Of a DNA stretch of 64,000 nucleotides, positions 2,236-51,977 are shown piece by piece. Made by a program: the position numbers and the translations under genes. Within the stretch, counting starts at the first letter, position 1, and every line of letters begins with the position of its first letter. The notes beneath the pieces were generated by a model. That model made no database searches and was not told the DNA's origin. It saw nothing but the letters and a program-made list of their open reading frames with translations. This DNA is from Eukaryota sp. GEM-RC1 (Eukaryota). Location: assembly GCA_040285855.1 (NCBI GenBank), contig JAUFOQ010000005.1, positions 1,922,001 to 1,986,000 on the forward strand. The letters run 5' to 3'.

Positions 2236-5230
2236 CAGTGTTGTCAAATGCGCACTATTTCCAGAAATGAAATGCGTCAAAATGCGCCAAATGCGCGCAT
2301 TTCTGCACATTTTGATTTCGAACTTGAGACACCCCATAAATAAAATTCTTTTCGTCATACTGATAGATGTCCTCGTAATTCTCTATATTCCATGCCCGTT
2401 TCGAGATGTATCTAAATCCCACATTATTGGGCATCACGGTCCAATTGTATACCAACCTCCTTCCAAAAGTTCTGTTGTATCAGAAGCTACAGTTCATTGT
2501 CATCATTGTGTCCACCAGTCCGTCACTGGATCTAATCGATTGAAACAACACTTTGTACCGGGGACGACGTAGTGTTTTCTTGTTCAAAACTCGTTGCAAG
2601 TCTTTAAGCTGAGTTGGGAGCGAAATCGCACATCCTCCTCTCATTGACCAATCTCATTGAACAACTGTTACCGTTAATCACATACTCTATACAGACAATG
2701 TGTTTCAACTTTCAGGACAAACAGTGGACGTGTGTGGCTTAATAAGTGGTCTTTACACCATATTTTATTCAGTATTTTATACGATATTAACCGTTTATGG
2801 TTTTGTATCCATTTACATTGTTCGTTAGTATGGGTAAAACAGATGTTTGATCAAAAGTTTTGCCGCTAACTTCATAGATTTTAAACCAATTCATTGTGAT
2901 ATCAAAAGAATGTTCATTGAATTGTATGCAGTACAACTTTGCATTTGTCCAACGAAAGAGGGACTGCATAACACTGTTTTAAGATCAACATCACTGTTAT
3001 TTGGTTATACCGACTTATACAGAAGCACAACAAAAAAAATTGGGAAATCGTCAATTTACATCACATAAGTAAATAACAATTCATTTAACATCAATACTCT
3101 TTTGCTAATGACTACAACTAATACAACTCTTCAACAAGGTCATTCTTATACAAACATCCAACACTTGCAGCATGATGTTTACTCTTGGTTCCTTTCGAGT
3201 GATAAAAGCTTCGACATAACTCAGAAAAACCAGAACCGTTGGGATATACGATGTGGCTCCTCTACACCTTGTCCCTGTTACATCCACTGTTTTCAGGACA
3301 CAGACACCCACGAATGGGAAATAAGAAAGTTTGTCGATCACATTGCTTCCTGCCAATCCTTATGTTTTACGACCTTGCCGAAACAAATCTGTGCCATTTT
3401 AATGGCAGAAGAAGTGAGAGGTGGAAAGATTACCAGACCATCTGTATTTGCTAAGAAGCTGAAAACCAAGTACTTTATTGATATAAGTCCGAGCAAAGCC
3501 TGTCGAGCTCTAGAGGCCACTAACGAACTACTTTATGGTTCGTTAGATACATCATACACCTTTCTGGAACCCTTTTTCCAAAGTCTCAACTCCACTAATC
3601 CCAACTCTCCTTTTAAGCTGAATGTTGCACCTGATGGCACATTTGAGCGCTTTTTTCTTTACTTTTCAACCTCTTGTGAAAGGATTTGAGTTTTTAAGGC
3701 CTGTTATCGTGATAGATGGAACTCATCTGAGGTCCAAATACAAGGGAACATTGTTGGCTGCTGCTGGCATTGATGCCAACGGACATTTCTTTCCTATAGC
3801 TTTTGAAATTACTCGAACGGAAAATGTAATAAATTGGAGAAGCTTTTTGGAGAATTTGAATGACAATTTTGCAATCAACGACAAAACAGTATTTATTAGT
3901 GACAGAAATCCAGCCATATCCCGTACGCTCGTCGAAGTTTTTGGTGAAGAAACTTACCACTCTGTTTGCTGTAAACATCTCAGTGACAATCTCTCGTCCA
4001 GAGGTGGAAAGAAAGCAATGAAATTGTTTTGGAAATGTGCAAGAGCTAGTACGTTAATCGAATTTAACCGCTATTGGCAGCTCCTTCAAATCCAGTGCCC
4101 AATGGGTTATACTTATTTGGAAGAGTCAGCTCCGAAAGAATCTTGGTCGACAGTACACTTTGAAGGGAATAGATATGGACAACTCACCTCCAATATCATT
4201 GAATCCTTAAATGCATGGCTTCTTCCAGTTCGCTCTTTGCCAGTGACTTCAATGGTTAACGGTATCTTTGAAGCAATGACTGATTTGTTCAGAAGAAGAA
4301 AAGATGAATCACTGAAGATGCATGGAGAATTCGTTGATGATGTTGAAGAGTATTTGTTGCCGTCGATATTGAGAGCTCGCAGTTTAGAAGTAACCACGTT
4401 CTCCGACAGTTTGTTTTCCGTGAGAGAAAACGAATTTGTGTTTTCTGTGGATCTGAAGTACAAAACGTGCAGTTGCGGATTCTGGAAACAACATGATGTG
4501 CCATGTATTCACGTAATGGCAGTTTCGAGACGTGTTAGAATTCACCCCAGATCTTTAGTCTCTCCCTACTATTTAGTTACTAATTTTAAGAAGACGTATG
4601 ATGGCGAATTTTATCCAATCGATTATAGAAGGAATATCTAAGAACTAGAAAGTGATGTGTTTCCTCCTTTAGATACAGTAATGCCAGGTCGTCCGCCAAT
4701 TTCACGTAAGGACAAGTACTCACGTACTAAACGCTTTAATCAAAGGGATTCGATGAGAAGGATGCGAGTAGCGACAGTGAAGAAGTAGAACCTGACGCAG
4801 CAGCAACGGAAGAGAATCAGGAAGGAATGCCTCTCTCCCCACGTAGATGTGGTCATTGTAGAATTATTGGGCACGACAGAAGAAACTGCCCAGAGTGGAT
4901 TGTGTTGCAGCAAGGTGCCAGCAGTATGATACCAACAGTAGTAGATGGTTCAGCACCAAGACCACGACAACGTAAGTGTAGAAATTGTGACCAAGTTGGT
5001 CATGACAGGAGAAACTGTCCAACGAAATAGGTTTTATGAGTTGAAACAATGATTGCAAAATAAAGTAATATTAGATGAAAAATGCAATTAATGTATATTA
5101 GTGATGAAATCTGTATAAATCCCAAAAAAATTCCAAAAAAAAATCTCAAAGTCAAAATGCGCAAGATCACAAAATCCCAAATGCGTAAAAGGCGTCAAAA
5201 TTGACGCATTTCTGAAAATTGATAACACTG
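2236..5230 (+). mobile_element. DNA transposon carrying a MULE transposase, bounded by short CAGTGTT terminal inverted repeats
   Basis: Left end CAGTGTTGTCAAAT; right end reverse complement CAGTGTTATCAATT (12/14). Subterminal AAATGCG repeats at both ends. No TSD seen. Confidence 0.7.
3102..5030 (+). pseudogene. Mutator/MULE transposase with SWIM and two CCHC zinc knuckles, disrupted
   Basis: Motifs IDGTHL, FISDR, CCKHL, TSNIIESLN; SWIM CSCGFWKQHDVPCIH; PGRPP; CGHCRIIGHDRRNC and CRNCDQVGHDRRNC. Frameshift near 3680, in-frame TAA at 4639-4641 and a further frameshift before 4827. Confidence 0.9.
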
Positions 5231-19876: not shown

Positions 19877-21677
19877 TCATTGTTTGTCTTTTCCCCAACA
19901 TTTATTTTCCCCGTTCTGTTTTTCAGTTTTTCATCCTCTCTTATGGTTTTGCTGTTATGTCTATATCATACACGGAACATTCATCTAGATCCTGACGGTC
20001 TCAATCCTTTTCGTAGAACATACTCTGCTGTTCATCTCAATAAAGGCGTATCTGATCCGGTGAAGTTCTTATCTTACTTTCACGTCTGAACTTTTCGTGA
20101 ATCTCTGATTCTTCTTTTCATAGTTTTGCGAAAGAAGGCGAGAAACATGATTCAACAGATTTTTATTCGCCATGACCACTTCTGGCGTGTCTTCCATGAT
20201 CTCTCTTGATGAAGTTAAGAGAACCAAAAGTTCTTGTCTTGATTCATACATGTACTGCTACATGTTGAACTTTGTTTCTGCATTTATGTAAAATTAATTT
20301 CAAGTGATCTTAAGCTTATGACTTGCACTTCCAACAAAAAAGAATGGCAAGCTTTGACTGTTTATCTCTTTCTTCCAACACTTATATATCCCAAATTTAT
20401 CACCATCACTAAACAATCTTCACAAGAACTGCCCGCAACAACACAGGTCTTCAATTGTTGTCAGATTGGCTTGCTGCCACCTCTCCCTTAATAATCCTTC
20501 TTCCGCACAACATGTACTGGATCCGTTACTTCGGTGATTTGTTGTGAATACCAGATCCATAGGACTTCATCCCATCAGTTCTCTGGTCTTTGATCATGAC
20601 GAATTCCTCGACGGACAAGAGGACGTACTGATCCATGAAGAAGAAGAGGAGCTCCTTGACAGTGTTCTAAAGTTGTCCCTTGTTGATGGTCTTGAAATGG
20701 AAGACCTTCTTATGAACATCTCCCCCTGATGATGTCTGTAACTGCTGGTTTTGAAGTTGTAGCCTTTCCCCTTTCCTATATTGGTGCTTTCAGGTCCGTC
20801 CTTGACCTTTCTCGCTCTTATATCGCCCTCTCCGTTAACACTAGTTCTCTCCTTCTCTCATCCATCCATTTAGCAGATATGTGAGAGATTATTGGTATTT
20901 GCTGATGATTGAGTGTTTAGCAATATTTTTCCTCAATCCCACCACTTAAATTTGGACGAAGATTACCCGTAGTGGTACATCCGTACCATCTTCAATTCAT
21001 CACAATAGTCATAGTTTGTTGGTTTATTTATCATAAAAAGCTAGTTACCAAACCAGTAGTATCTCCCTCTACTCGTCAATAATATTTGATTGTTTTGATT
21101 GATTGGCGAGTGAAGAAAGTCTTGGTCACTTCTCGGTTGTTTCAATGTTAGTTATTGAACAACTTATGTTTATTTCTAAAAAAAATTAAGATTATATTCA
21201 AGCAATATCTTCAAAAATAACTGGAATGACTCGACAAACACATGATATACATCATAGAGGCTCTGGAAATACTCTAGAGGAACACTGGACTCAAAATCTC
21301 GTTTAATTCTCTTGTTTAATTAATTCTGTCAAGAGATTCCTGTGGAGTCACATCAAGGAATATAATGCTGTTTCTCTTTCTCATAAAATTAGCCATGTTG
21401 TTAAACAAGCGGAGATAGGTTTCGCAGCCATGTTATTCCAAGAGTCCTGAGTCTGAGAGCATTTTGGCAAAGACGGAGTCCTTATAGATTGTTCAGTCTC
21501 TAATGGAACCACTGATGGAGCCGAAAGATGCCGAACTGAATACCATAGCAATTAAAAACCATCTCAACTACTCAGCAACTGGTGTCCACAGATGGTAATT
21601 TACAAATACACTATAGAACAAACGATTGTGATAGAGGTTACATAAAATACATCAAATTCTTCAATTATTTAACTTTG

Positions 21678-23509
21678 ATGACTGTCGCCAAAAAAACCAC
21701 TGTCGCGTCATCTATTTCCCGTTTCTTCGGAGTGCCAGCTCAAAAAGCCATGGAGCGGCAGTTCCGCCACGTCAGAACAGTTGCTGTCCAGAGCACCCTC
21801 CTTGCTCGACTGTTCGTGCTCCAGCACAAACACTTGGCGTACTGGCTGACTGAACATCAGTACTGGTACCAGTGTTTTGACTTTGTTTGTCTAGATCCGT
21901 CCTCCCCGACGATGCCAGTACGGGAACCTTTTAGTGAGCACACTGAGGTGTTCAATGCTCTTTTAAATTCTACAGACCGTCCAGGCTGGCCGTTCCCTCC
22001 TATTGGCCGGGACAAACCCCCATGCAAGGAACGGAGGTGTCCCATCAACTGGGCATACTCGGACCTATTTAGTGCAAGAGCACTTCAACTTGCAGCTGCC
22101 TTTCAGCAGCTGATGACGGATGGCTTGGTTAGTTGGAAGCTTAACTTCTTTCGAACCACAGCTACCTACTGTCTTTGTCCCTCTCCAAAGCAGTACGCTT
22201 CTCTTGTTCTACGTGGCTCTGAGCCACCGCAATCTCTTCTTCCTTGGTGGACCACTTGGCACCACCAGATTGTTGACATCTTCAACAATCAAGTTATGGA
22301 CCCAGAACGAGTGGATGCCCTTTTGACCACTCCAATGACTGACTTAACTCCGTCCAATGTCAACTTCATCTTTGAAGTTGCATTTAATCTTCTCCTCCAC
22401 TTGGAGAGGGTTGAACCCACCAGAATGCGTCGGCAGGCTCTTACGCCCATGGCATCTTATTCACCTGGCTTTCTTCCCTTCAGCCAGGCTACTCAAAAAC
22501 ATTTCCAAAATTATAATACTCGAAAGGTTTTATTAAAAAATCCACATGATGTTTTTAGAAAGAAGAAATTTGAGACTTATACAATTTCCTCTGATGGAGT
22601 CTCATTGAGATTCACTTTCTCAATGAAGCCTAAAAAAGACTAAAAGAGGCGAACAAAGGCCGAGTTGGAGCTGGTGGAGAAACCTGCTCAACGGCCTTCA
22701 AAGACAAGAAAAAGGAAGAAGAACCTTCAAAGTAAGGTTGTCCGTTCTCCTCCTAAGAAGAAGAAGAAATCTGAGGTGTCTGAAGTACTACCACTTCTGG
22801 ATGAAAGTGTTTTATTTTGGGCTATTGACCCCAACCACAGCAATCTGTGTGGTTGGTCGGTGGGTTCACTTAATGGCCCAGTTGAAGCCTCTGGGATTTG
22901 TTTGTCCCCAAAACCGAAAAAAATTAACCATGCCCCTGCTCTCACTCACACAACAGCGAATACTTGTATCGTTGAGAACTTTAAACTGTATCTCATCGAA
23001 TTAGCTTCTCACGTTGTGGATGTCCAGATGAGCAAAACTATACTACAAAGACGGTTTATTGAAGGAAACAGACGATCTTTACGACGAAATAATTTCGACT
23101 TCTATATAAGACGACAAAAAGATTCGATTTACTACACCAGAAAATCAATACTATAGCTGATGGCCGGACAATTAGCATCTGGTTTGGCAAAGGCGGAGAT
23201 GGACCATCAAAACAAAAGGTCAAAGCGCCTAGAAAGCGATTCTTGACTTATCTACAAAGATCGCACAATGTGGTGATGGGAGACGAGTTTTATACTTCAA
23301 AAAAGGTGAACTGCTGTAAGGTTGTCCACTAAAAATTGTATCACATGGTGAATGGCGAGAGGAGAGTGAACAATTCCAAGTTCACATGTCCTCTTTGTTT
23401 GCAAGAATGGTCGCGAGACATCTCAGCATCTCGAAACCAACTAGAGATCGCAATCAGCGAATTCTTCTTCGGGATTAGACCTGAAGCGTTCAGAAGACCT
23501 GAACGTTAG
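21678..23509 (+). pseudogene. Fanzor1 (eukaryotic TnpB/Cas12-like RNA-guided RuvC endonuclease), disrupted
   Basis: ISSDGVSL, RuvC-I WAIDPN, IWFGKG, RuvC-II VVMGDEFYTSKK, zinc finger NCC..CPLC, RuvC-III WSRDISASRN, C-terminal RPEAFRR. In-frame TAA at 22641-22643 and 23330-23332; frameshift at the A-run ~23116-23120. Confidence 0.88.
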
Positions 23510-23621
23510 TGAAGAATATTTCATGTATTGGCCGATGAAGTTCAAGTTACCTTGAATGGAGGCCGTAATGTGGTGCTTCCTCAGAAAAGGGGTGTGTATG
23601 AAGAAGCTTTCTTTGAAAGTG
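23510..23621 (+). ncRNA. Candidate Fanzor omegaRNA scaffold
   Basis: Lies between the Fanzor stop and the candidate right end. Hairpins TTCAAG-ttac-CTTGAA (23541-23556) enclosed by GGCC/GGCC, and CTTTC-ttt-GAAAG (23607-23619). Positional inference; expression not shown. Confidence 0.45.
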
Positions 23622-23652
23622 TAAAGTATCCATTTCTTGAAAAATCCACAGT

Positions 23653-25599
23653 ATGAACACACCATCTAAAAAACCCAGAGGACGGCGTCCTTCTAACAGT
23701 AGGCCTGTTCCTGGATCTAAACAGACACCTTCTTCTGTTCCAAAAGACAGTCCTCATCTTCGTCGAACCAATTCCATTATCAACATCGAAAAGGCACCCA
23801 CAAAACCTGTCAATCAGCTAAACTTACCACCTCAAGAACTGGAAAATGACATTCAACGTGTTCTAACCACCGAAAATCCCAACGCCCTTTCTAATACAGT
23901 TGAGTTTAGCCGCTCTGTACACGATGGTCATCCTCTCAATGCCTACGTCAACGTCTCCACCAATTCTTCCATGGAAACATTCTTCTCTCTAACAGGCCCC
24001 TTGCTCTCAACTCTTCCTAAACAACAAGAACAATCAAATCCCTCAAAGAACCAGTTTAACTACATTGACCGAGGTAACCAGACTCTCCCTTACTTCCACC
24101 CCAAACACGATGCCGCCACGTCAGCAGCTGAAACACGTCGCACTGTCTTTAGTGGATCTGTCTCAAATGGATTTATAGTGGACGCATATGAACATCACTT
24201 AAATCCTCAAGTCCCAGATAGTAAGAGCACTAAACAAGAAGCTTTGGGGCGATCCTCTTTAATAGCTGAACGAATGGTTCTTCAGAACATTAATTCTGAG
24301 ATCATTTCTGACTTCCAATCATTTGACCATCAAGCTGACCTTGTTGATCCCACTGTCGCATCACTCCTTCCTCTTTGGAAACTTTCCGCTTTCGGTAAGT
24401 CTGATGATCTGCCCAAGAGCAAATCACTCAGAACAGTGACCTCCATGGCCTGGAATCCTCTTCATCCCGATCTTGTTGCAGTCTCACTAGGGTCGTTTGA
24501 TTTCTCTATTCAAGGAGGTGGTGCTGTTTTACTTTTTTCATTAAAGAGTCCGCATTTCCCATTGTCAATTGAAAGACTAGACTCAGGTGTTTTGTCATTG
24601 GATTGGAATGCTGAGGAGCCGTGGCTTTTAGGGACAGGATTGTATGACGGTCGGGTGATGGTATTTGATTGTCATGATGTGGGGTCAATCAAAGTCTTGG
24701 CAAAGTCTACAGCTGTGACTGGAAAACATTATGATTGCTGCTGGCAAGTGCAATGGCTACCACCAATCAAAAATGATGAGGATGATTTCGTCTGCCAAAA
24801 GCTATTATCAATCGGAAATGATGGAAGAGTTCTTTCATGGGAGTTGACTAGAAATCAGTCAAAATGGTTGCCAAAGATATTCTCCACTTAACCGATGCAG
24901 ATGGAGCTTCTCTATTGTTTTCTTGTTTTGAACTTTGTCCTTTTGATCCAAGGATCTTTCTATTAGGAACTGAGAGCGGACGTTTGTATAAGTGCTCGTT
25001 GTCTAGTCAGACGCCGTTGTTTCCAGTATCAATCACATGAACTTGCCGTTTACGCTACTAGATGGTCTCCTTTCAATCAAACTGCGTTTTTGACCTGTTC
25101 AGCTGATTGGTCGGTCAGATTATATTCCTTAACTTCTGCAAATCCACTGTTATCATTGAATCTTGGTGGTTCTGTTACTGACATTCATTGGTCACCACTT
25201 AGTTCAACTATCTTTGCGGCTTCAGTATTGAATGGAACAATGATGGCTTTTGATTTGGCAAAATGTTCGTTTGCTCCGATTTCGAAACAGATAGTTTCTG
25301 AAAAGGGCAAGTTGTCGTGTCTTAGATTTAATCAGCATCATCCAATCATTTTGATTGGTGATGATAGAGGCAACTGTCACGTCATGAAGTTGTCTCCTAA
25401 TTTGAGACCTGATGTTGTTTCTGCTTTTACTAAGACTTCAAGTACTAATATTAAAGTAGCTCTGACTCTTGAGGAATTAGCTTTAATGTCTGGTGACCTA
25501 GATCAGAATGATGACGATTCGGTTTCCGTTGAGAACAAAGTACGTCGTGCACAGGAAGAAGAGTTGAGGAAAGTCATGGTTGCTGCTGGTAATTCTTGA
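23653..25599 (+). CDS. DNAI1: Axonemal outer-arm dynein intermediate chain 1 (IC78-like, WD40); two apparent frameshifts
   Basis: NQFNYIDRGNQT, ERMVLQN, LLPLWK, FLLGTESGRLYKCS, HELAVYATRWSPF, TCSADWSVRLY, GDDRG..KLSPNLR. Frame changes near 24860 and 25022. Confidence 0.88.
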
Positions 25600-30845: not shown

Positions 30846-32275
30846 TCAATAATACCATTGATACAATTCCAAATTTTGTACTGGATAACTTCTTCCAATG
30901 CTTAAAATCTTTAAACTCCTCCAAGACCTAACCCTACTTAAGGTCACATAAAGTTGGGCATATTCCCAAAACTGGATAGCAACTTCAATCCCGTCAATTG
31001 TTAAACCTTGGGATCGATGCACTGTTATTGCCCAGCAAGGTCTTAGCGGAAACTGAATTCTTTTCGCCACTTGAACAGGTCTTCCGATTTCGTTCAAGTG
31101 TTCGATAGCAAACCTTGACTGACTGATTCTTTTTGGTTCTGCTTCAGTGTTGAACCTAACATCAATATATGAATCTGAAAAATTAACAATAACTCCTTTT
31201 GAACCATTAACTAGTCCAAGTTCAGGCTTATTTTGAGTGTACATCACTTGTCCACCCACAACGCAGTCTAGTTTTTTTTTCAGCAAAGTCATCCAAGCGA
31301 CTTGTCAGGACCGAAGTTTCAATGTCATAATATTTTTCCAAATTAGATTCATTGACTGGAAATCTAGAACTTCTTTTTCTAATTTAAGATTCTAATTCAG
31401 ATTCATTGAATTTGTCAACAGCTACAAATTCAATTGAATCTGAATTTTGGCCAGAATTTTGTATTGTTTTAAATTTTCTCTAGCAACATCAGTATTCCTT
31501 CCGTATAAAATTGTTGGTTTTCAACAGATTCTGCTGTTTCGAAATGAGTACGCAGAATTGATTTCATAAAATTATCTAGTAGACCCAATCTCAATTGATT
31601 TAGAAAATTAAAAAATTGTGAGTCTGATTGCAGCCGAATACTTCCAGCCAGTTCACAATATTTAAAATTTAAACTGTTCCAAGCTCTTGATGAAAAAGCG
31701 AAATCAGAAATTATCACTTTTCGATTTCCTTTTCCATCAAGACTTTTCACAACAGGGGCTAATTGAAGAAAGTCCCCAAAACAAATTATCTGAATTCCTC
31801 CAAATGGTTTCTTCGGGAAGTGACATTTTTGCGTGTGCATAAGTTCGCTCAAAATGTCACTCGCTCGTTGAAACAATTTGGAGGACAACATTGAAATTTC
31901 ATTAATGATTAACATTGAATTATTTGGAGTAATTTTTTTTAACAAAATTTTGACATTTGATGGCATACATTTAATAACATCATGAATGAATTCTTCTTCT
32001 TTCATAAACTTATAACCAAACAGTGAGTGTATGGTCTGTCCACCAAAAACAGTTGATGCAACCCCAGTTGTTGCAGTGAAAAAGATTTCACCATTAGCAC
32101 GCATGAGACGAGATCCGACGTTACTCCACCAGTTTTTGAGTGCATGTAAAAGATAAGATTTTCCTGATCCTGCACCGCCAGTGACAAAGAAGTTGCGTCT
32201 GCTGGTAGTGATTGCGTTAAAGATCTCACGTTGGTCATCTGTGAGATTGATGTTGTGTATAGTGGTTGGTGGCAT
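30846..32275 (-). pseudogene. PIF1-family SF1B DNA helicase, disrupted
   Basis: Walker A GGAGSGKS, TATTGVAS, GQTIHS, Walker B altered to INEISM, FGGIQIICFGDFLQLAPV, LVNGSKG, QFPLRPCWAITVHRSQGLT, YVTLSR. Broken between 31292 and 31469. Confidence 0.9.
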
Positions 32276-32458
32276 TGAGTTGATGGATTGTTTGAGCGCA
32301 GGGAAACTTGGTCTTCATCAAATTTCTCTTTCACTTCAAACTATGACTTTATCCAGGGACTGTATTTCAATGGGAAAATATCAGAAATGTCCACGCACAT
32401 CTCGCCTATCAAAAATGCCCACATTGTACGATGCTTTATTCGACAGTTACTTGTACTT

Positions 32459-33106
32459 CTATACCTCATCTAAACATCCATTAAGAACCTCGTTTGCATT
32501 ATCGATGGATCTTTCCTCATCATCGTAATCTACAAGATGAACTTCTTCCATTTCGACCTCGTCTCTCTCTTGATCACATACTGCTAACCAACTATCTGCT
32601 TTTGTCATTCTTGCTTGTTTAGCTTTCTTGGGGAAGACTCCGTTTCTCTTCTTTTGACGTGTTCCAGGAGTCTTCTGAATAAGAGAAGGATTGATTGTAG
32701 GATACTGATTTCTCTTGTTCCACTCTTTTACGGGTGGGATGATAGGTAGTCTGCCTTCGTTGGTTTTTTTGTAGTTAACCAAAGAGTGGAACTCGTCAAT
32801 AGCTTCCAAAGATCTCATTTTTATCTTTAAATAAACAGCAAGAGTGTGGCAGTATCGATAGCCTTTCTTTTGCCATCCATTACATGTAAAAGTGTTTTCA
32901 TGTTTGTTAACAATAAAATGGACATCATTCTTACCAACTACTTCATAAATATCGTCGTTTGACCCAAAAGTTTTGAACGTTCGAGCCAAAATCATTTCTT
33001 TTGGGCTCCAGACATTTCCTGTTTCATATGTTCGACAATATCTCGGGGGCATATAAATTGTTAGCACGGTGTTTACTAACAATATTGGGCAGCTCAGGAT
33101 ATGCAA
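32459..33106 (-). pseudogene. MULE transposase C-terminal fragment with degenerate SWIM zinc finger
   Basis: NTFTCNGWQKKGYRYCHTLAV (consensus CxCxxWQxxGxPCxH), then FHSLVNYKKT and a basic PGTRQKKR segment. Confidence 0.65.
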
Positions 33107-33354
33107 CGACGATACGCAAACGAGACACTAGCTGTTTATTATACAAGACGGAGAATCAAAGACCAAGGGGTAACAATGTCTACAAGGTGACATTGGCATT
33201 TAACATGTGTATCGGGTGTATGCCGTCAGCAAATGTCACTAGCCTTCAGTTTGGGGAGTCACATAACTCTAAAAGAACGAGAAGTAACAGAGTGTGGCTT
33301 TGTTGTGGATATGAGTTTGGATGAAGAAATTGTAGATGTAGATACAAGACTGGA

Positions 33355-34914: not shown

Positions 34915-35413
34915 TAAACACATGTTTCGTATCATTGTGTTTCATAAACACGTAACATATCAAATGTTCGTTATATTGAGTAAGAATTGAATGAATAGGA
35001 AAAACATATTGACCTACATAGCGGATGCCAAAGCAATGTTTATCAAGCAGAACCTATGTTGAGGCTAGATTCTAGAGTACTACAATGATCATGAGAACAA
35101 AGATCTTACTGTAGTAGTATCACACTTTTGTAAGATTGACTCCCAGTCCTCGTGTGATGACTTTTTCTTCACCAGTACTCAGCTTACATCTAACGTATAC
35201 TTGGTAGAAAAGCTCAGAGTCCGTAATTCAGAAAGAAACTGGTCAAATCTAAGACACAAGCTTGTGAAATGTTTACGTTATGTATAATAAGGAATCATAA
35301 GTCCATGAAAGTAAGGATTAGACTACAAGTCAAGAGACCATTCTGCAAGGAAGTTTGAAAAGAAAAGGTGTCAAAAGAGGATATCTACAACTAGAAGTAG
35401 AGTCTGTACAGAG

Positions 35414-36220
35414 ATGTTACTAACTTTTTTCTTCTACTGTGCCATGTCTTCCTCATTGCTCACACCGACAATCTCCGTACTCATCCTCATAAGAAAAGGT
35501 AATGCAATAAGGAGTTGTCTTCTTGGTGCTAACATGTCTTCCTTACTGCTCACACCGGCAATCTCCGTACGCATCCTCATAGGAAAAGATAATGTAATAA
35601 GGAGTTGTCTTCTTGGTGCTAACATGTCTTCCTCACTGCTCACACCGACAATCTCCGAAAAAAGTGGTAGCCACTGGTTCAGAGATCTTACAGTCGACGG
35701 GGACGTCGAATCAAACCCAGGGCCTCAAGCTGAATTCATCAATCTTGAAAAACTCTATCATATCAGTTGCGCTGATATTCCTCATAAATGTGGTCTTCAT
35801 CCTGTTAAACGTGTTTGTGGGTACATGATATGTAGTTGCCTAGACCATCATCGAATATACACTGGAAAAATTCATCGACCTCCACTTGACTCAGTATCGC
35901 AAGTCCCTCCTTGTCCATTACCCATTCAATCTTACTTGTTTGAGTTGGAATCACACGTCCAAAAGCAAACTCATGAAATAAAGCGATCGGAAATAATAGA
36001 TTTTGTTTCTTCAAAAGAGTCAAACTATGTCCCACTATGTCCTGACGATATGTTTTCCAAATTTCTTCAGTACCACAAACAGTGCTTGGAAGATATAGGC
36101 AATCGTGAATTACCTGTGTTACCTCTCATCAGTTCATCTCTGAGCGAACCAGAATGTCAAACCTATCGAATATGTAATAGGTGTATGCTTCCTGGTCATA
36201 AATTTTCTTTCAAAAAGTAA
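35414..36220 (+). CDS. 2A-peptide-containing Cys/His-rich ORF (retroelement ORF1/gag-like, truncated)
   Basis: WFRDLTVDGDVESNPGP matches the D(V/I)ExNPGP 2A consensus. Cys/His cluster follows; the ORF ends in a partial knuckle CNRCMLPGH. Confidence 0.7.
   Translation: MLLTFFFYCAMSSSLLTPTISVLILIRKGNAIRSCLLGANMSSLLLTPAISVRILIGKDNVIRSCLLGANMSSSLLTPTISEKSGSHWFRDLTVDGDVESNPGPQAEFINLEKLYHISCADIPHKCGLHPVKRVCGYMICSCLDHHRIYTGKIHRPPLDSVSQVPPCPLPIQSYLFELESHVQKQTHEIKRSEIIDFVSSKESNYVPLCPDDMFSKFLQYHKQCLEDIGNRELPVLPLISSSLSEPECQTYRICNRCMLPGHKFSFKK
35444..35657 (+). repeat. 90-bp tandem repeat, about 2.4 copies, directly upstream of the 2A motif
   Basis: Units begin ATGTCTTCCT at 35444, 35534 and 35624. Confidence 0.95.
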
Positions 36221-38693: not shown

Positions 38694-39893
38694 TTATTGA
38701 AACAATGATCGTCGACTGTTAGTGGTTTGACTATCTTTCAATCTGATAAAGAGAGCAGCATTTGAGAGATAAGGAGACCTGTAATATCGGTGTTGCCTCC
38801 ATCCAGCCTTGTCAAACAATCTCCGGCATTCGTAATACATTTTGGACTCCGTCAGTCGCTTTACAAAAGCCAGATGATCTACATTAGCTCTGTCCTGGAA
38901 ATGAAACTCATCTCTTAACTTCCTCTTCAAAATGCCGAAAAATAATTCGATTGGATTGCTCTCAGGGCAATATGGAGGCAAACCGAAGTACTCGATACCA
39001 CATTTTCTCAAACCTTCTGAAATAGCCTCATGAATATGGATTCGACATCCATCAAGTATAATTTTACTATGGGTTGCTCCAGCAGCACCCAAATAGCCTC
39101 CTTGAATCAGCCCAAATAAAAAGTTAACAAAGTCTTTTCGATCAAAATGTCCGTACTGAGCTTCACAATATATGAAACCATCCATACCAATAGCCACACA
39201 GAGACTTATTTGAAAGTGTTGCATTTGACCAAGTTCTCGGTCAATTTGCACCCCTGCCGGTGAGTATCCATAAGTTCGTTCATAGTCTTCGATTCTAAAC
39301 GATACTTCGTCAATAAACACAAGTTGACTTTGTATAACAATTCCGACACGGTTGTTCCACATACACTCAAATTTTGTGATGAGCTGTATACGAGCTCTCC
39401 TCACAAGGGCAACACATCGTTTGCGAGTATAATTAAGCGAAGCTATAGCTCTCTGGATAGTTGAAACCGAAACGTCTTTATTTCTATGAATAGAGATCAG
39501 ACCTACAATTTCCCTGAGATACAAAGGAGGATCTGCATCAAGAACAGATTTAATAAAAGATTTATCATCAGAATCGAGTACACCTACGTTACCAGAGGTC
39601 TTATACGAATCTTTGTCCTCAAAAGCGGAAGATATCCAACGGGATATCGTAGATTGTTTTACATTAAAGAAGAATGCAACCTCTTCTTGGGTTTTGTTTA
39701 ACCAGAAGTAAGTATAGACAGCTCTGGTTTTCGTATCTTCAGAGGCGTTGACTGAGCGTTTGTGAAACTTCCGTATCTGGATGATTTCTTGAATTCCGTT
39801 CAAAATATTTACCACCCAGATTCTAGTCTTGTTCATTCTTCCTTCAACATCCCATGTAGATATGTCCACGCTATGGATATTTGATTGACCCAT
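38694..39893 (-). CDS. IS630/Tc1-mariner superfamily DD34E transposase, intact ORF
   Basis: HTH TQEEVAFFFNVKQSTISRW, second HTH VSVSTIQR, LVFIDE, ILDGCRIH and LPPYCPESNPIE, with 34 residues between the second D and E. Candidate terminus ..TTTTGACTG|TA at 40029. Confidence 0.93.
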   Translation of the reverse strand: MGQSNIHSVDISTWDVEGRMNKTRIWVVNILNGIQEIIQIRKFHKRSVNASEDTKTRAVYTYFWLNKTQEEVAFFFNVKQSTISRWISSAFEDKDSYKTSGNVGVLDSDDKSFIKSVLDADPPLYLREIVGLISIHRNKDVSVSTIQRAIASLNYTRKRCVALVRRARIQLITKFECMWNNRVGIVIQSQLVFIDEVSFRIEDYERTYGYSPAGVQIDRELGQMQHFQISLCVAIGMDGFIYCEAQYGHFDRKDFVNFLFGLIQGGYLGAAGATHSKIILDGCRIHIHEAISEGLRKCGIEYFGLPPYCPESNPIELFFGILKRKLRDEFHFQDRANVDHLAFVKRLTESKMYYECRRLFDKAGWRQHRYYRSPYLSNAALFIRLKDSQTTNSRRSLFQ

Positions 39894-41101
39894 ACTTTGT
39901 TCTTTCTAGATCTTCTTGAAATAAACACTCATTGTTGAGATTGGAGCTTGCAGAGTGCGTTTATTCTATATAGCGTGAAACTTTATATAGCGTAGGTACA
40001 TATAGTCCCGCTATAAACAGTTTTGACTGTAGTTTGTATTTCGTTAATGTAAAAAATAAAACTAAAAATAGTTTATTAAGTGCAAAAACTGGTCATGTTT
40101 TGCATCTCAAATGTTTTGATTGCAAACATTAAGTGTAATCACATCAATGACCGCCAGGTCATCCTCGACTTATGAAACAATGAGATCTGCATTTCTTCTA
40201 CTGACAGTCTTATTTGAATCGCTATTTATCATATTATTCGTCGCAAATGAGTTCAAAAATGATTCAACAACAGATTCAATTTTGTAGGATCAACACATTA
40301 CATGAATTTGATCTCTTACAGCATCATGAATGCAAAATCGATAAGTAATGAAGCGATTACAACTGCAACTCAAAAAGTGAGAAAATGTAACTAAATCACT
40401 ACTTGTAGTATCAGATCAATTATTAATTTTCATGAACCGCGTCATACACAGAAATAGACCATTATTTTTGAATGGATTGGTTGTATGTCTGTAATATAGG
40501 TATCATATTTTCAAATACGTTGGGTGATATGTAGATACATGTATCTTTTGAACGTTCAAAACATCTGTAAATAAAGACCGATCTCATGTCTTCACACAAA
40601 ATAATTAATATAAGAAAAGTACCAGCATAAGTTTCATCAATTTCTTCCCTGAATGGAATCTCCAGTTCCACAATTTCTCGAGTTAAGGACATATACTTAG
40701 TTCGGAATTATTTCTGTCAATCTGTCCTTGAGTTTCTTTGGGTCATTTTTTATACGATTTCCTAACTTCAATAGGCATCTTAGAATAGAAAGTGTCTGGA
40801 TTCAATTAATCGGAGATCTTTTCTTTAAGACTAGGATTTAAATTTTGAATTTTAAACATTCAATATGGCTTCCCAATTCCATATCAAATGAGGACAATCA
40901 AGTTCATGAACAGTTTTTCAACTTATCAGTCTAATAGTTTCAAATTCATATCCGGTACGACACTGTCTTTTTCGGAATTTTGGTCTATTTGAACGCAATA
41001 CACATCAATACATCAATACTGTCGGTTGGTGATGTGTAATTGACGGTCTTTGATTAGTTGGGGTGTACAATAACAAAATTGAACAAAATTAATGCAAAAC
41101 A

Positions 41102-41279: not shown

Positions 41280-42552
41280 AACGTCAATGTCACTAAGAAG
41301 TCATTTGTTTACTTCTGCTCATTTTGGTGGTATTGGATTTATCAAACCTTCAATTCTTTGCAAATCTGCTTTTTTAGTCGGTGGAAAAAATTTCATCTTT
41401 GAATTTGTTAATCGATTTCCTAATGATATTTCCCTTATTAACCCCAATTCATGTAAATATTTATTTGACTTAAACGAAGCGTTAACCAAATTACCCTTTG
41501 ACGTTTGGTCTCAGTGTTTCCCAGAATCTGTGTCTGAAATACCTGAAAGATGTTTGACTAATCTTCAGTTCTGTCTGAAAAAATTACAACAGAAACTCAC
41601 AAATATTTGTGAAAGCTTGGATTATAATGTTCGACTTGGCATGGCCAATGAAAAAATCCCGCTTTTGGAAACTTCTTAATGGATGTTTCTAATAGCTCTG
41701 CTTCATGTCTGATTACTCACATCCCTCAAGTTTACGGTCTTCTTCTTGATGATAACTCTTGGTCATTAAACATGCGTTTACGGTCATATATTTGGCCTGA
41801 TAACCTTCCACACAATTTGAAATGCCAATGTGGGCAATCTGTAACACCTACACATTTATTGAATTGTAACCGTTTTATTTCTTTTAGAAGTAAGGTTCAT
41901 GATTCAGTAAGGGATCAATTATATTGTATGTGTAAATCCTATAGAATAGTTTCCTTTTTAGAACCAGTTCTGGCTGGTTTGTTTGGTGATACAGATGTTG
42001 ACAAATCGTTTGGAAATAGCCGTGGTGATGTCATATTTCCTGGTCTCGATGGATCTTTCATTATTGCTGATGTTATGTCTATCGATGTTTGTAATGATTC
42101 CAACAAGAAACTTGCTAAATCTAATGCTGAAAACCCCTTGTTGATTGGTGAAAAATTGAAAATGCAAAAATATTGGGCTAAATTGAAATTATTGAATTCG
42201 GCTTCACACTCGAATTACTTGTACCCTTTTGTATTTTGACTGTACGGTTCTTTAGGTGAATCTGCATCATCATTACTTGAAATCTTTGTGAAGATTGTGG
42301 AGGAAAAACATCTAGGACTTTTGATCTTAAATTTTGGAAAAATCGAATCGTGTTTGCTATCTTTAAAGGTATGGTCACTTCTGTATCTAGCGCTTTATTA
42401 TCTCTTGGCAGACATTATGAAGATAAGGTAGGTGAAAATTTCCAGTTAGGCAATCTGGACTTTGAGGATATTGATTATTAGATGTACATATGTACACTGT
42501 AGTGTTATTGTCTATTACATTTAGAATAAATAATTAAGTTGTGAAAAAAAAA
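41280..42552 (+). mobile_element. 5'-truncated non-LTR retrotransposon with CCHC finger and restriction-like endonuclease (CRE/R2-type architecture)
   Basis: FGGIGF (post-RT motif), CQCGQSVTPTHLLNC, RSKVHD, RGD..D..EKLKMQKY, YPFVF*LYGSLG. The 3' end has AATAAA and an A9 tail at 42544-42552. Confidence 0.8.
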
Positions 42553-42819
42553 TCTATAAAGAGCAAACATAATTCAATTAATCCATACAGCGCTATTAAA
42601 CACCTTGCCATTAGAACGACATAAAAAACTAAAATCACTGAAAAACTTAAAACCAGCTGGACCAACATTACCAAAAATTTAAATGGCAAATGGAACAAAT
42701 GAAAACTTAGAATGTAGATTTTCATTAAGCTTCTGCAAAGCATCCGCATAATTTGTTCAACCTTTTCCAGATGACCATTGGAATCATTCAATATGGAGTC
42801 TTGGTAGACCTTTGCAAAC

Positions 42820-43080
42820 GGAAAAAATTGAGGTTATTGAATTCAGTTTCACACTCGAATTACTTGTTGTACTCCCTTGTATTTTCACTGTACGGTTCTT
42901 TAGGTGATTCGGCAACATCATTAGTTGAAATCTTTGTGAAGATTGCAAAAGAAAAAACATCTAGGACTTTTGATATTAGATTTTGGTAAAATCGAATCGC
43001 GTATGCTATCTTTAAAGGTATGGTGACTTCCGTAATCTAGCGCTTTGTTATCTCTTGGCAGACATTATGAGGAGATGCTG
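42820..43080 (+). mobile_element. Second copy of the retroelement 3' fragment
   Basis: Near-identical to 42178-42425 (TCACACTCGAATTACTTG..GGCAGACATTATGA). Confidence 0.8.
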
Positions 43081-44016: not shown

Positions 44017-45489
44017 CTAAGCTTTTTTCAACACTTGTTTCTTAATAGACAATGAAATCAAAACCCCAATAAGCAAGAAACAACTCATTATAACAAACGA
44101 CAAGCTTCCCACTCCCAAATCCTCTAAAACTCCATAAACAGTTGGTCCTAGAAATCCAGCAAACGCCGTTCCAGTGAAAACAAACGGATAAACAAAAGAA
44201 AAGTTAATTTCGCTAAAGATTTCATTAACACAGACTGGTAACGCAACGTAAACAGCCCCGTAACATGAAGCAATAACAAACGCAATTATTAACAGGACAT
44301 ATGGGAATCCTGATAACGTAATAAAAACAATCAAAGAAACTGCTTGCGTAGCTAGAATTAAAGTTAAAGTATTAGGAGCTCCGATTAGATCGGCAACTTG
44401 CCCTAAAAGGATTCTAACAATACCATTTCCAAGATTAAAGGAGACAGCAGTCGCCATTAAAGTCCACATCTTTGCTTCCTCTGAAGAAAATCCTCGTTCT
44501 AAAAGCTTTTTTTCAGGGAGAATTCTGAGAGCTCCCAAAATCATGAAACCCGCTGAACTAGCTATTACCAGAGTGAAGAAACATTGCCAAAAGTTAGTCA
44601 TTTTTAATAAACTTTTGAGATACAATCGCTCTTCAGTTGATTGATTAGAAATGATAGGTTCAATTTCCCTCTCAGAAATGACAGAAAACCTTCTAGAACA
44701 AGCATCAGAGTCAGACTCGAGCTCCTCGTCTATCTCCTTCATTCGAGTTTTCTCCACCACCACATCAATCATTGATAACTCTGACAAGGCTGACATCACT
44801 GATGCACTTTTTTGAATTGAAGGTATCTCATTGTCATCAACAATTGGCTCCAACTCTTTTGATTCCTTCTTATGATGACGTGTGTTTGTCTTCTCATCAG
44901 TCTTGGTCACCATGAAAAGACCAGCAAGAAAGATTATCAATGGAGCTGTTAGAGAGAAGACCCGAAACAAAACTTGAGGAGAGTTGGTTTTTAAAATTTG
45001 TTCAACTAGAAATGACCATATCAATGATCCACTGCCAAACATACCTGCCACAAGGCCAGAAATAGCTCCTTTCTTGTTGGGAAAATAAGTGAGGCAGATC
45101 TTGAGAGCAACTATATAGGAGATTCCCACACTGCCTGCCACAAATAGACCAAGACCTAAGGCGATGCTGATGAAGGAAACACCACCAGCAAAGGAAGCAA
45201 TTGTGTAACCAAAGAACATCAATAAGCTGGAGCATGTGGTGAGGAATCTGAAGCTGTAGAACTTAAGGAGAAAAGGAGCAAGCATGGGAGCTAAGCCCTC
45301 AACAATTTGAACACAAGACCAGACAGCTTGAGTTTCTTTGGTCGTCCAGTCATACTGAGAGGTCAGAAAAGGAATTATAGTGGGAAAAGAATAGTTGACT
45401 CCAAGGGATATCTGAATGAGCGCGGAAGCGATGATGACAACGGAGCGATTGTCAGTGAGAAATGTTCGTAATCTGTGATCGGAAAGCAT
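44017..45489 (-). CDS. MFS transporter, oxalate:formate antiporter (OFA)-like, copy 1
   Basis: 490 aa, 6+6 TM layout, YFPNKKGAISGLV, NLGNGIVRILLGQVADLIG. Confidence 0.9.
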   Translation of the reverse strand: MLSDHRLRTFLTDNRSVVIIASALIQISLGVNYSFPTIIPFLTSQYDWTTKETQAVWSCVQIVEGLAPMLAPFLLKFYSFRFLTTCSSLLMFFGYTIASFAGGVSFISIALGLGLFVAGSVGISYIVALKICLTYFPNKKGAISGLVAGMFGSGSLIWSFLVEQILKTNSPQVLFRVFSLTAPLIIFLAGLFMVTKTDEKTNTRHHKKESKELEPIVDDNEIPSIQKSASVMSALSELSMIDVVVEKTRMKEIDEELESDSDACSRRFSVISEREIEPIISNQSTEERLYLKSLLKMTNFWQCFFTLVIASSAGFMILGALRILPEKKLLERGFSSEEAKMWTLMATAVSFNLGNGIVRILLGQVADLIGAPNTLTLILATQAVSLIVFITLSGFPYVLLIIAFVIASCYGAVYVALPVCVNEIFSEINFSFVYPFVFTGTAFAGFLGPTVYGVLEDLGVGSLSFVIMSCFLLIGVLISLSIKKQVLKKA

Positions 45490-46788
45490 GTCAAAAGTGG
45501 TGTCACCAAAGAAGGTTCACCTTTAATGGAACTACCATTAGAAGATCGAAGTTGGAATTTCTTACTTTACTTCTTCAAACAAAAAGACATTCTTAAAGAA
45601 TGCTAAATGTGAAACTTCCCCTTTATACATTTCTGAACAAACCAATCATGATAAGTACAAGAAAAAAAAATAATGGCTCTAACACAGGTAAATTTGAAAT
45701 AGAGGGTGTACGTCAACTTTATAGCCTTCATAACTGATTAGTTTTCGATATAAATTGGTTCTTACTGTCTCTTAACTATAAATGTTGAAAATCTGACAAG
45801 TGTTAAGACATTGCATTTCACCGGTTTTTACTTCAGTTTCATAGTGAGAAGCTTACAGCAATGCCATGTTATTAGTTCCTTTCTGAGGGGAATTTTTAAA
45901 TAACTTAAATTAATTACAATTGAATTGTCAGTTTTCACAAAGTTGTATAACAACTGTGGTACTGTTGACCAGAAACTTTCGGTGTCTCGTGTTTCATAGC
46001 TTTTATTATGATATGTATTATGTACCGTACATCAATAAGCGGTTATTTTTGATTACAGTTGAACAGTGAAAATTCATTCAGAATTGAAGGGTTCTTTGAT
46101 TACTATTGAATCAAAATTAAAACAAATTGATTATTCAATGTTTACGATCGTGGGATTATTCCCTTACTGAAACATTTGCTAACCAGTTTAATTCTATGAC
46201 AACTAATTTTCACTCCAATTTGGTTGAAATTAATGGGACTCAGACTCCGTATATATAGATTTATATTCGTCTGAATTCAGGTTTCACCCATGCAAAAATC
46301 GTCATAAAATCTGCTCTTTTAGACGTGTCAACAGTTTTCTGTTTGAGTTTTTGAAACGGTTTCCAGAGGACAGAATTACTCTGCTGAATTCCAGTAATAA
46401 TTGATAAATTCAATCTGCTAAAGTTCTAGTATCATCTTTGTCTCCTGAAGGGTGGGAATTTCCGTTTCTGCTCACTTGAAGGAGACTGTATTAAATGATA
46501 TTTGATCTTTACCATCTGCTGAATGTATGCTCCATAATAAATTGACTACGGAGTTTGAACTCTTGGACTTTAATAACGTACTGCAATAATACATTTTAAG
46601 AGGTTCTAAACTTACTCATAAATATTTTTTTTTTACAAATAGGACTGTTCGAGTCCCGGTTCCAACTTTAGTCCCGGTTCCAGTCTGGTTCTTGAGTTGG
46701 GTTTTTGATCCGAACAGTTTTGTATTTTTGTTTCTTCAGTTATATAAATTCTACTAGACATGTAGTTTGTAATTTCCCTGACATAAAT

Positions 46789-50460: not shown

Positions 50461-50502
50461 TTCCATTTACGGTGATCCTTTGTTGGTGACACCACTTCTG
50501 AC

Positions 50503-51977
50503 ATGCTTTCCGAACAGAGATTACGAACAGTTCTCACTGACAATCGCTCCGTTGTCATCATCGCTTCCTTGTTCATTCAGATATCCCTTGGAGTCAACTA
50601 TTCTTTTCCCACTATAATACCTTTTCTGACCTCTCAGTATGACTGGACGACCAAAGAAACTCAAGCTGTCTGGTCTTGTGTTACTATTGTTGTTGGCCTA
50701 GCTCCCATGCTTGCGTCTTTTCTCCTTAAGTTCTACAGCTTCAGATTCCTCACCACATGCACCAGCTTATTGATGTTCTTTGGTTACACAATTGCTTCCC
50801 TTTGCTGGTGGTGTTTCCTTCATCAACATCGCCTTGGGTCTTGGTCTATTTGTGGCAGGCAGTGTGGGAATCTCCTATCTAGTTGCTCTCAAGATCTGTC
50901 TCACTTACTTCCCAAACAAGAAAGGAGCAATTTCTGGCCTCGTTGTAGGTACGTTTGGTAGTGGATCACTGATTTGGTCATTCTTAGTTGAACAAATCTT
51001 AAAGAACAACTCTCCTCAAGTTTTGTTCCGGGTTTTCTCTTTAACAGCTCCATTGATAATCTTTCTTGCTGGACTCTTCATGGTGACCAAGACTGATGAG
51101 AAGACAAACACACGTCATTATAAGAAGGAATCAAAAGAGTTGGAGCCAATTGTTGAAGACAATGAAATTCCTTCAATTCAAAAAAAGTGCATCAGTGATG
51201 TCAGCCTTGTCAGAGTTATCAATGATTGATGTGGTGGTGGAGAAAACTCGAATGAAGGAGATAGATGAGGAGCTCGAGTCTGACTCTGATGCTTGTTCTA
51301 GAAGGTTGTCTGTCATTTCTGAGAGGGAAATTGAACCTATCATTTCTAATCAATCAACTGAAGAGCGATTGTATCTCAAAAGTTTATTAAAAATGACTAA
51401 CTTTTGGCAATGTTTCTTCACTCTGGTAATTGCTAGTTCAGCTGGTTTCATGATCTTGGGAGCTCTCAGAATTCTCCCTGAAAAAAAGCTTTTAGAACGA
51501 GGATTTTCCCCAGAAGAAGCAAAGATGTGGACTTTAATGGCGACTGCCGTCTCCTTTAATCTTGGAAATGGTATTGGTAGAATCCTTTTAGGGCAAGTTG
51601 CCGATCTAATCGGAGCTCCTAATACTTTAACTCTAATTCTAGCTACTCAGGCTGTTTCTTTGATTGTTTTTATCACGTTATCAGGATTCCCTTATGTCCT
51701 GTTAATAATAGCATTTGTTATTGCTTCATGTTACGGGGCTGTTTATGTTGCATTACCAGTCTGTGTTAATGAAATCTTTAGCGAAATTAACTTTTCTTTT
51801 GTTTATCCGTTTGTTTTCACTGGAACGGCGTTTGCAGGATTTCTAGGACCAACGGTTTATGGAGTTTTAGAGGATTTGGGAGTGGGAAGCTTGTCGTTTG
51901 TTATAATGAGTTGTTTCTTGGTTATTGGGGTTTTGATTTCATTATCTATTAAGAAACAAGTATTGAAAAAAGCTTAG
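50503..51977 (+). CDS. MFS OFA-like transporter, copy 2, with two +1 frameshifts (pseudogene or assembly error)
   Basis: Near-identical to copies 1 and 3. One extra base in the C-run at ~50800 and in the A-run at ~51180. Confidence 0.85.

Follow-up and report, generated by a model that had tools for sequence, protein, structure and literature searches.

Among described systems, the best structural match to the proteins reported here is SpuFz1, the Fanzor1 of Spizellomyces punctatus (PDB 8GKH, 9CEU-9CEZ; PMC10432273, PMC11423790). Sections of PMC11423790 describe how, in studied Fanzors, an RNA from the right end of the element guides a RuvC cut beside a short motif, and part of PMC3627910 lists Mariner, MuDr, Helitron, and other elements as carriers of Fanzor1 genes. 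A kinked pair of REC2 helices embracing the heteroduplex is presented as a Fanzor1 hallmark in excerpts of PMC10711439, and SpuFz1 residues R407 and R420, which the helix after RuvC strand 3 carries, contact the target DNA (PMC10432273, in part). Other comparators are PpFz1 and GtFz1 (PDB 9CF0-3, 9CER-T), Fanzor1-like proteins from giant viruses and from other eukaryotes (ESM Atlas PF26935/PF07282; BFVD), and the Fanzor2 ApmFz2 (PDB 9B0L) together with IS607/IS605 TnpB.

The locus examined here lies at 21678..23509 of a 64,000-nucleotide stretch of DNA, all of which we refer to as the window. It resembles SpuFz1 in size, in DPN at RuvC-I, in the TDG/SDG motif, in the Fanzor-type position of the second catalytic residue, and in the terminal RPxxF, with catalytic triads of D383/E541/D606 in SpuFz1 and D384/E537/D581 in the copy. 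Models of its relatives align to SpuFz1 with Z of 18.0-20.7 over 503-524 residues (rmsd 4.5-5.0), at ~14% identity. In contrast to SpuFz1, the copy is broken, the first half of its zinc finger reads CC where SpuFz1 has CxxC, and the family has a shorter proline-rich segment where SpuFz1 has the helix that follows strand 3. The relatives' models also share the Fanzor1 fold of PpFz1 and GtFz1 (Z 17.7-19.5); judged by length, the family shows no sign of the 100-residue RuvC insertion of PpFz1, and the third catalytic residue is N in GtFz1 but D in the copy.

Reading frame, lesions, and Fanzor identity

Three-frame translation of 21678..23509 (+ strand, as for all features of the copy) yields a Fanzor1-type pseudogene of 481 + 129 = 610 codons in two frames, running from an ATG at 21678, which agrees with the start of the annotated protein and of two sister proteins, to a TAG at 23507-23509. 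The first frame contains ISSDGVSL (22584) and WAIDPN (22818), and the second FGKG (23183), GDEFYTSKK (23279), NCC (23309), CPLC (23387), RDISASRN (23414), and RPEAFRR (23477). The join between frames is correct, because sister P0018 spans the second and third lesions in a single open frame (422/427 and 126/129 residues identical). An earlier reading made from the sequence alone had named these eight motifs, a joined protein of ~610 aa, an intact D-E-D triad, two TAA stops, and one homopolymer frameshift; all were recovered, the motifs where it had placed them and in RuvC order.

The WED/REC half (21678..22640), assigned from the fold match of relatives, comprises the 321 aa before the first stop (protein P0003) and includes SDG at 22590..22598, the counterpart of the Fanzor1 WED 'TDG' motif. 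Between WED and RuvC-I lies a lysine-rich stretch (22698..22769), low-confidence or coil in the models, that from its composition is likely a nuclear localisation signal. All three catalytic residues are present: D384 within the DPN of RuvC-I (22827..22835), E537 of RuvC-II (23285..23287) in the Fanzor-type position beside the zinc finger, and D581 of RuvC-III (23417..23419). The TNB zinc finger itself (23312..23398) reads CC ... CxxC rather than CxxC ... CxxC.

Three lesions interrupt the gene. The first is an in-frame TAA at 22641..22643, in a codon outside both sister gene models; the second is a frameshift at 23116..23120, where a run of five A is one base short and P0018 stays in frame; and the third is an in-frame TAA at 23330..23332, where P0018 has Gln. 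Since two of the three are in-frame stops, the locus is likely a real pseudogene—a dead copy of a Fanzor1-derived gene—even though the second lesion alone could be an error. We consider it very unlikely that all three are assembly errors masking a copy that is intact in the cell. The assembly likely does contain indel errors, judging from frame breaks elsewhere: of three near-identical membrane transporter genes in the window (44017-45516, 50476-51977, and 56728-58227), the middle one bears two +1 homopolymer indels, and the host WD40 gene downstream of the copy bears two frame breaks; the second lesion likewise falls within a homopolymer, and the assemblies of the named relatives discussed below are Nanopore-based and Illumina-polished. 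The first and third lesions, however, are stops and not indels, the third lying one base from the sister's Gln codon; eight further substitutions, private or shared, separate the copy from P0018, and a neighbouring kinase fragment is decayed as well.

Hexamitid diplomonads read TAA as glutamine, and the present host is most likely a metamonad too. Under such a code the frameshift would be the only lesion, and the third lesion does place TAA at a Gln position. We rejected this reading, whose probability we regard as negligible: two 499-codon transporter ORFs have 12 Gln codons each, all CAA or CAG, and the GDSL, Tc1, and MULE ORFs of the window terminate in TAA. Judged by this codon usage, TAA is a stop in the host genome.

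The locus encodes a Fanzor. A profile search had been suggested as a check in the sequence-only reading, and the C-terminal piece exceeds the cut-off of Pfam PF07282 (TNB; 32.4 bits against 26.3), whereas the N-terminal piece had no Pfam match. A profile built from 37 non-skoliomonad Fanzor1-like proteins gave 89.6 bits for the C-terminal piece, only 20.9 bits for the N-terminal piece, and 106-152 bits for 12 relatives, with 0/14 reversed controls matching at E<=10. Searched directly against solved structures, the window pieces returned chance matches only; the N-terminal 321 aa had no match in the ESM Atlas, and a family-only profile reached no Fanzor1 structure by sequence, but a mixed profile including other Fanzor1-like proteins reached one at 7e-67. 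NCBIfam TnpB models scored far under their cut-offs, and a plasmid search gave no close match.

For structural comparison, we used AlphaFold2 models of the full-length relative P0050 (pLDDT 85.8) and of sister P0018 (pLDDT 84.9), which contain no nucleic acid and derive from alignments of 72 rows that include the 37 other Fanzor1-like proteins and thus bias the models towards Fanzor1. With this bias, Foldseek placed three solved Fanzor1 proteins on top for both models (TM 0.41-0.56), compared with TM 0.20-0.22 for Fanzor2. For P0050, seven Fanzor1 chains came first (E 2e-12 to 9e-8, TM 0.44-0.54) against TM 0.22 for Fanzor2 9b0l, and the sister model gave the same ranking. VIA-align of P0050 against Fanzor1 gave Z of 17.7-20.7 over 459-524 residues, and other chains (Cas12/TnpB) reached at most 14.3 among the matches listed; Fanzor2 9B0L was not among the 50 VIA-align matches listed, which is no evidence by itself. 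In the models, ~500 residues align to the three Fanzor1 structures, consistent with the enlarged REC and 600-700 aa architecture of Fanzor1, and the compact TnpB-like fold of Fanzor2/IS607 appears absent (TM 0.20-0.22 to 9B0L vs 0.51-0.56 to SpuFz1/PpFz1), although the RuvC + TNB core is common to Fanzor2 and TnpB and the Fanzor-type E is shared with Fanzor2. In the P0050 model, D398 is on the first RuvC strand, E567 just past the fifth strand, and D608 where the last helix begins, so that, by secondary-structure position rather than distance, the three acidic residues are predicted to meet in one site; a similar arrangement is described in part of PMC11423790.

The structure prediction that the sequence-only reading had proposed for the repaired protein thus bears out its expectation in the two proteins modelled, relative P0050 and sister P0018. 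Its assignment to a Fanzor1 type is supported. The location is eukaryotic: the copy sits between GDSL and WD40 genes among eukaryotic transposons, and its family is multi-copy.

A proline-rich segment in place of the long basic helix

Two features of this family are unusual and new here, namely the replaced RuvC/REC2 helix and the altered first half of the zinc finger. The first is a 29-residue stretch (22905..22991) that starts where RuvC strand 3 ends and runs into the next helix; it is coil in both models, and its first ~22 residues are proline-rich and occupy the place that a long basic helix takes in other Fanzor1 proteins. Counted from the end of strand 3 up to a fixed aromatic residue of the following helix, the segment is 29-31 residues long in all 12 subfamily representatives, with Pro at 1-5 of the first 20 positions. 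In all 37 other Fanzor1-like proteins it is 42-57 residues long and has 0-1 Pro, making the skoliomonad version ~20 residues shorter. No proline-rich segment was found in any of the 53 non-skoliomonad matches spanning the region, a count taken after 15 short or chimeric matches, not all source-checked, had been removed by hand.

SpuFz1 R407 and R420 map into the replaced segment (by hand count from the alignment). Of the REC2 hallmark pair, the returning helices are present in the models and the outgoing one appears as a short proline-rich coil, according to our own mapping of helices; because this hallmark feature is predicted to be missing, we file the family as Fanzor1-derived and not as canonical Fanzor1. 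We use 'bridge helix' for the lost element by its position after RuvC-I; the term is absent from the Fanzor1 papers searched for it. The overall prediction is a bilobed Fanzor1 fold with the segment as extended coil (pLDDT of the block 73-90 in P0050).

Could the segment simply become a short helix on guide and target binding, leaving an ordinary Fanzor1 with an unchanged mechanism? In Cas12a, the bridge helix is reported to stay a loop and to turn helical once the hybrid has formed (excerpts of PMC12957466), two subfamilies have a single proline in the segment, and several Lys/Arg are retained. We nonetheless find this unlikely, given that the segment is ~20 residues too short, that 10/12 subfamilies have 3-5 prolines in it, and that it is coil in both models despite 37 helix-bearing homologs in the alignment.

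Among skoliomonad rows with a residue at the position, the triad is kept at D 34/34, E 33/34, and D 34/34, despite subfamilies that are only 21-55% identical. The DP of RuvC-I is invariant, followed by N instead of G in 31/34 skoliomonad rows and 2/37 others; we considered DPN as a novelty and rejected it, since SpuFz1 is also DPN. The RuvC-II glutamate (in DEFYTS) shares an alignment column with that of 37/37 other Fanzor1-like proteins and lies just upstream of the zinc finger, the relocated position that distinguishes Fanzors, and the distance from D to E, at 150-169, overlaps with the range seen in other Fanzors (151-210). Most skoliomonad rows have D or N followed by G/A at the WED motif. 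Set against the signature of Bao and Jurka, D-X(125-275)-TS-xx-[C4 zinc finger]-X-RD, the spacing, TS, and RD are all found and the first CxxC is altered: all 11 scorable representatives have xxCC or xxCH in the first half of the zinc finger, compared with CxxC in 33/37 others.

Copies, host, and spread of the family

Beyond the copy's own protein, two word-index searches returned only proteins of Eukaryota sp. TZLM1-RC, TZLM3-RCL, and GEM-RC1. These named relatives are skoliomonad metamonads, corresponding to three Skoliomonas assemblies (PMC11316075, in part), and the host of the copy is most likely a skoliomonad too. Searching 1.84 billion representatives with a profile yielded 295 matches, and within the 150 listed the family gives way to other Fanzor1-like proteins in a drop at about E 1e-13. 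Twenty proteins were looked up: 13 Fanzor matches are skoliomonad, six are environmental, and one is a kinase. The nearest sequence matches outside the family are Fanzor1-like proteins; those of viruses and other eukaryotes (Atlas feature score 0.98; viral BFVD models with TM up to 0.58) have E of about 1e-13 or worse against the family profile and 14-24% identity, and nothing points to a close viral donor, given that 0/53 share the proline-rich segment. The idea, raised from the sequence, of a divergent family in a poorly sampled lineage is likewise supported.

The family falls into at least 12 subfamilies, the 12 representatives of which show 21-55% mutual identity, with clusters of 41, 28, 24, 14, 10, 9, and 8 members. 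From 11 clusters, each listed with no more than 15 members, we fetched 95 gene models; 29 of them, spanning 8 subfamilies, are full-length (>=580 aa with all motifs), where 'full-length' describes the gene model, some of which mask lesions behind predicted introns. Full-length members include P0050 (KAL0205730.1), P0017 (KAL0210346.1), and P0078 (KAL0227877.1). Full-length copies within a subfamily are 94.6-99.3% identical, which together with the cluster sizes points to recent, repeated spread. The copy's protein clusters with two sisters, both 98-99% identical: P0018, whose gene model has gaps of 10 and 44 residues, and P0019, which ends early (280/290 identical to the copy). The expectation that intact sisters may exist thus failed within the copy's own subfamily, where 0/3 members are full-length and both sisters have gapped or truncated gene models, and held in other subfamilies, whose full-length gene models are 31-48% identical to P0018 by best local alignment.

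In a quick, unrooted tree built without a Fanzor2/TnpB outgroup, all 12 subfamilies grouped together (SH-aLRT 99). When the RuvC-I-to-REC2 region was removed, the 10 DPN subfamilies kept a support of 99, and that for their union with the two DPG subfamilies dropped from 99 to 42; as far as the tree goes, the helix replacement likely had a single origin. A similarly short, proline-bearing segment after strand 3 (by eye and hand count) follows a DPG in KAG9392881.1, a fragment from the fornicate metamonad Carpediemonas membranifera that appears as a raw HMM match in the portion of Table S2 of PMC10711439 we consulted.

Some gene models have features of their own. Four (P0005, P0035, P0038, and P0039) lack ~10 residues just after SDG relative to other subfamilies, reflecting either a short predicted intron or a true deletion of a WED strand. 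P0252 (KAL0209630.1, 1323 aa) begins with a 2A-like peptide, followed by an XPG/Exo1-like nuclease (PF00752 and PF00867 over cut-off) that a linker connects to a complete Fanzor, in which the proline-rich segment is also present. Its cluster has 9 members, including P0247, P0248, and P0250, all known as gene models only; P0247 likewise runs from an XPG-type nuclease into a Fanzor N-terminus, and P0250, tried as a plain Fanzor, was excluded from the set because Pfam shows it to be mostly XPG.

Full-text literature searches, with subscription papers, patents, and bioRxiv supplements beyond their reach, returned no discussion of Fanzors in metamonads or Carpediemonas, and the Skoliomonas genome paper, their sole match for Skoliomonas with transposable element, does not contain the word 'Fanzor'. 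Metamonad names were absent from the supplements of PMC10432273 (one scanned file of which is unreadable) and PMC10530073; in that of PMC10711439, whose dataset was downloaded in November 2022 according to part of the paper, they gave one plausible Carpediemonas match and a few spurious-looking regex rows, and the sections of PMC10711439 examined do not discuss KAG9392881.1. With this family, Fanzors reach a deep anaerobic lineage absent from discussion in the literature searched. Fanzor1 as such has been mined widely, and the broken copy itself matters solely as the pointer to the family. Retention of the triad across at least 12 subfamilies with the helix replaced offers a natural test of whether that helix is needed and what stands in for it, and the 29 full-length gene models from 8 subfamilies, presumably differing in target motif, are candidate compact editors.

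Proposed role and element flanks

We think it fairly probable that the locus is a dead copy of a multi-copy metamonad Fanzor1-derived nuclease whose intact members cut DNA under RNA guidance for their own mobile element and, by prediction, work without the long basic helix. By analogy with studied Fanzors, an RNA from the right end of the element would load the protein, flanking DNA would supply the guide, and the RuvC triad would cut the empty site beside a short motif. Repair would then restore or spread the element, which a transposase would move in trans. Restoration of the element at empty sites is a role known from TnpB work. With the outgoing helix gone, the basic extended segment or the RNA would need to line the channel. 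Activation may differ, because the Cas12a bridge helix gates RuvC, linking the pairing of guide and target to the opening of its active site (PMC12957466, in part).

A different outcome would be that RNA guidance has been lost, leaving a guide-independent nuclease or an accessory factor of the element, which we judge improbable. In its favour, the stretch missing here touches the heteroduplex in SpuFz1, an XPG-type nuclease is joined to the Fanzor in a sister subclade, and Rfam and a folding scan, which for a single copy have little power, revealed no guide RNA; yet WED, TNB, the insertion in REC, and the returning helices of REC2 are all kept, and ~500 residues align to guide-bound structures. 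A broader proposal—that metamonads carry an old, still-spreading Fanzor branch, RNA-guided without the bridge/REC2 helix of the other Fanzor1 proteins in our comparison, with a differently built heteroduplex channel and perhaps reaching Carpediemonas—we put forward tentatively, at a little under an even chance. If true, it would imply altered guide length, specificity, or activation, with dozens of full-length natural variants at hand.

On the right, the element is bounded by the host WD40 gene (23653..25599, +), which has a weak WD40 match below cut-off and which we take to be dynein intermediate chain-like. Its ATG lies only 143 nt past the stop of the copy, and the guide RNA and right end should therefore sit at ~23440..23652 (+), a candidate region placed by position only. 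Hairpins in this right flank (z -1.6 to -3.4 in six chosen windows) were weaker than several coding windows in a sliding scan, and Rfam gave only three sub-threshold matches. Separately, stretches of coding sequence at 22300-22480 and 22600-22720 folded more stably than their shuffled counterparts (z -6.0, -4.7, and -4.3; 30 shuffles each, 39 windows).

To the left, head to head with the Fanzor, lies a 5'-truncated deoxynucleoside kinase pseudogene fragment (21203..21510, -) that corresponds to codons ~89-188 of the intact paralog P0074 (68/102 identical, with 2 stops and 1 shift). The kinase homology ends at ~21510, leaving about 170 nt before the Fanzor ATG, and this point is a candidate for the left boundary of the element. 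The fragment is either cargo that the element picked up or a neighbour that its insertion cut short. We also considered that the element had split a kinase gene, and rejected this because the missing 5' part is neither downstream nor elsewhere in the window.

No terminal repeats or target-site duplication were found around the copy. The best inverted match, at 21646 and 23510-23529, scored 24 (reached by 10/300 shuffles) and gave no plausible left end, and a 22-nt match between 23631-23652 and 55869-55890 is marginal (E 0.06). The ~1.2 kb that separates the GDSL gene from the kinase fragment (19900-21100) is stop-riddled and possibly another decayed gene; six-frame searches of it against Pfam and PHROGs found no transposase or other family, and no transposase was found in 19900-21700. 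None of 11 viral and 337 metagenome pattern matches was confirmed as a related locus.

The window is rich in transposons (3069-4641, 30846-33127, 38694-39905, 41281-43034, and 59098-63819), among them a MULE, a Pif1 helicase beside a SWIM-like ORF (labelled by eye), Tc1/DDE_3, probable non-LTR remnants (partly by eye), and an LTR retroelement that includes RT and RNase H; of these, the MULE and Tc1 are candidates for moving the Fanzor element. An ORF at 35315-36220 (+) carries a 2A-like ribosome-skipping motif at 35702, and the surrounding 39 residues show a 46% match to the N-terminal end of the XPG-Fanzor cluster.
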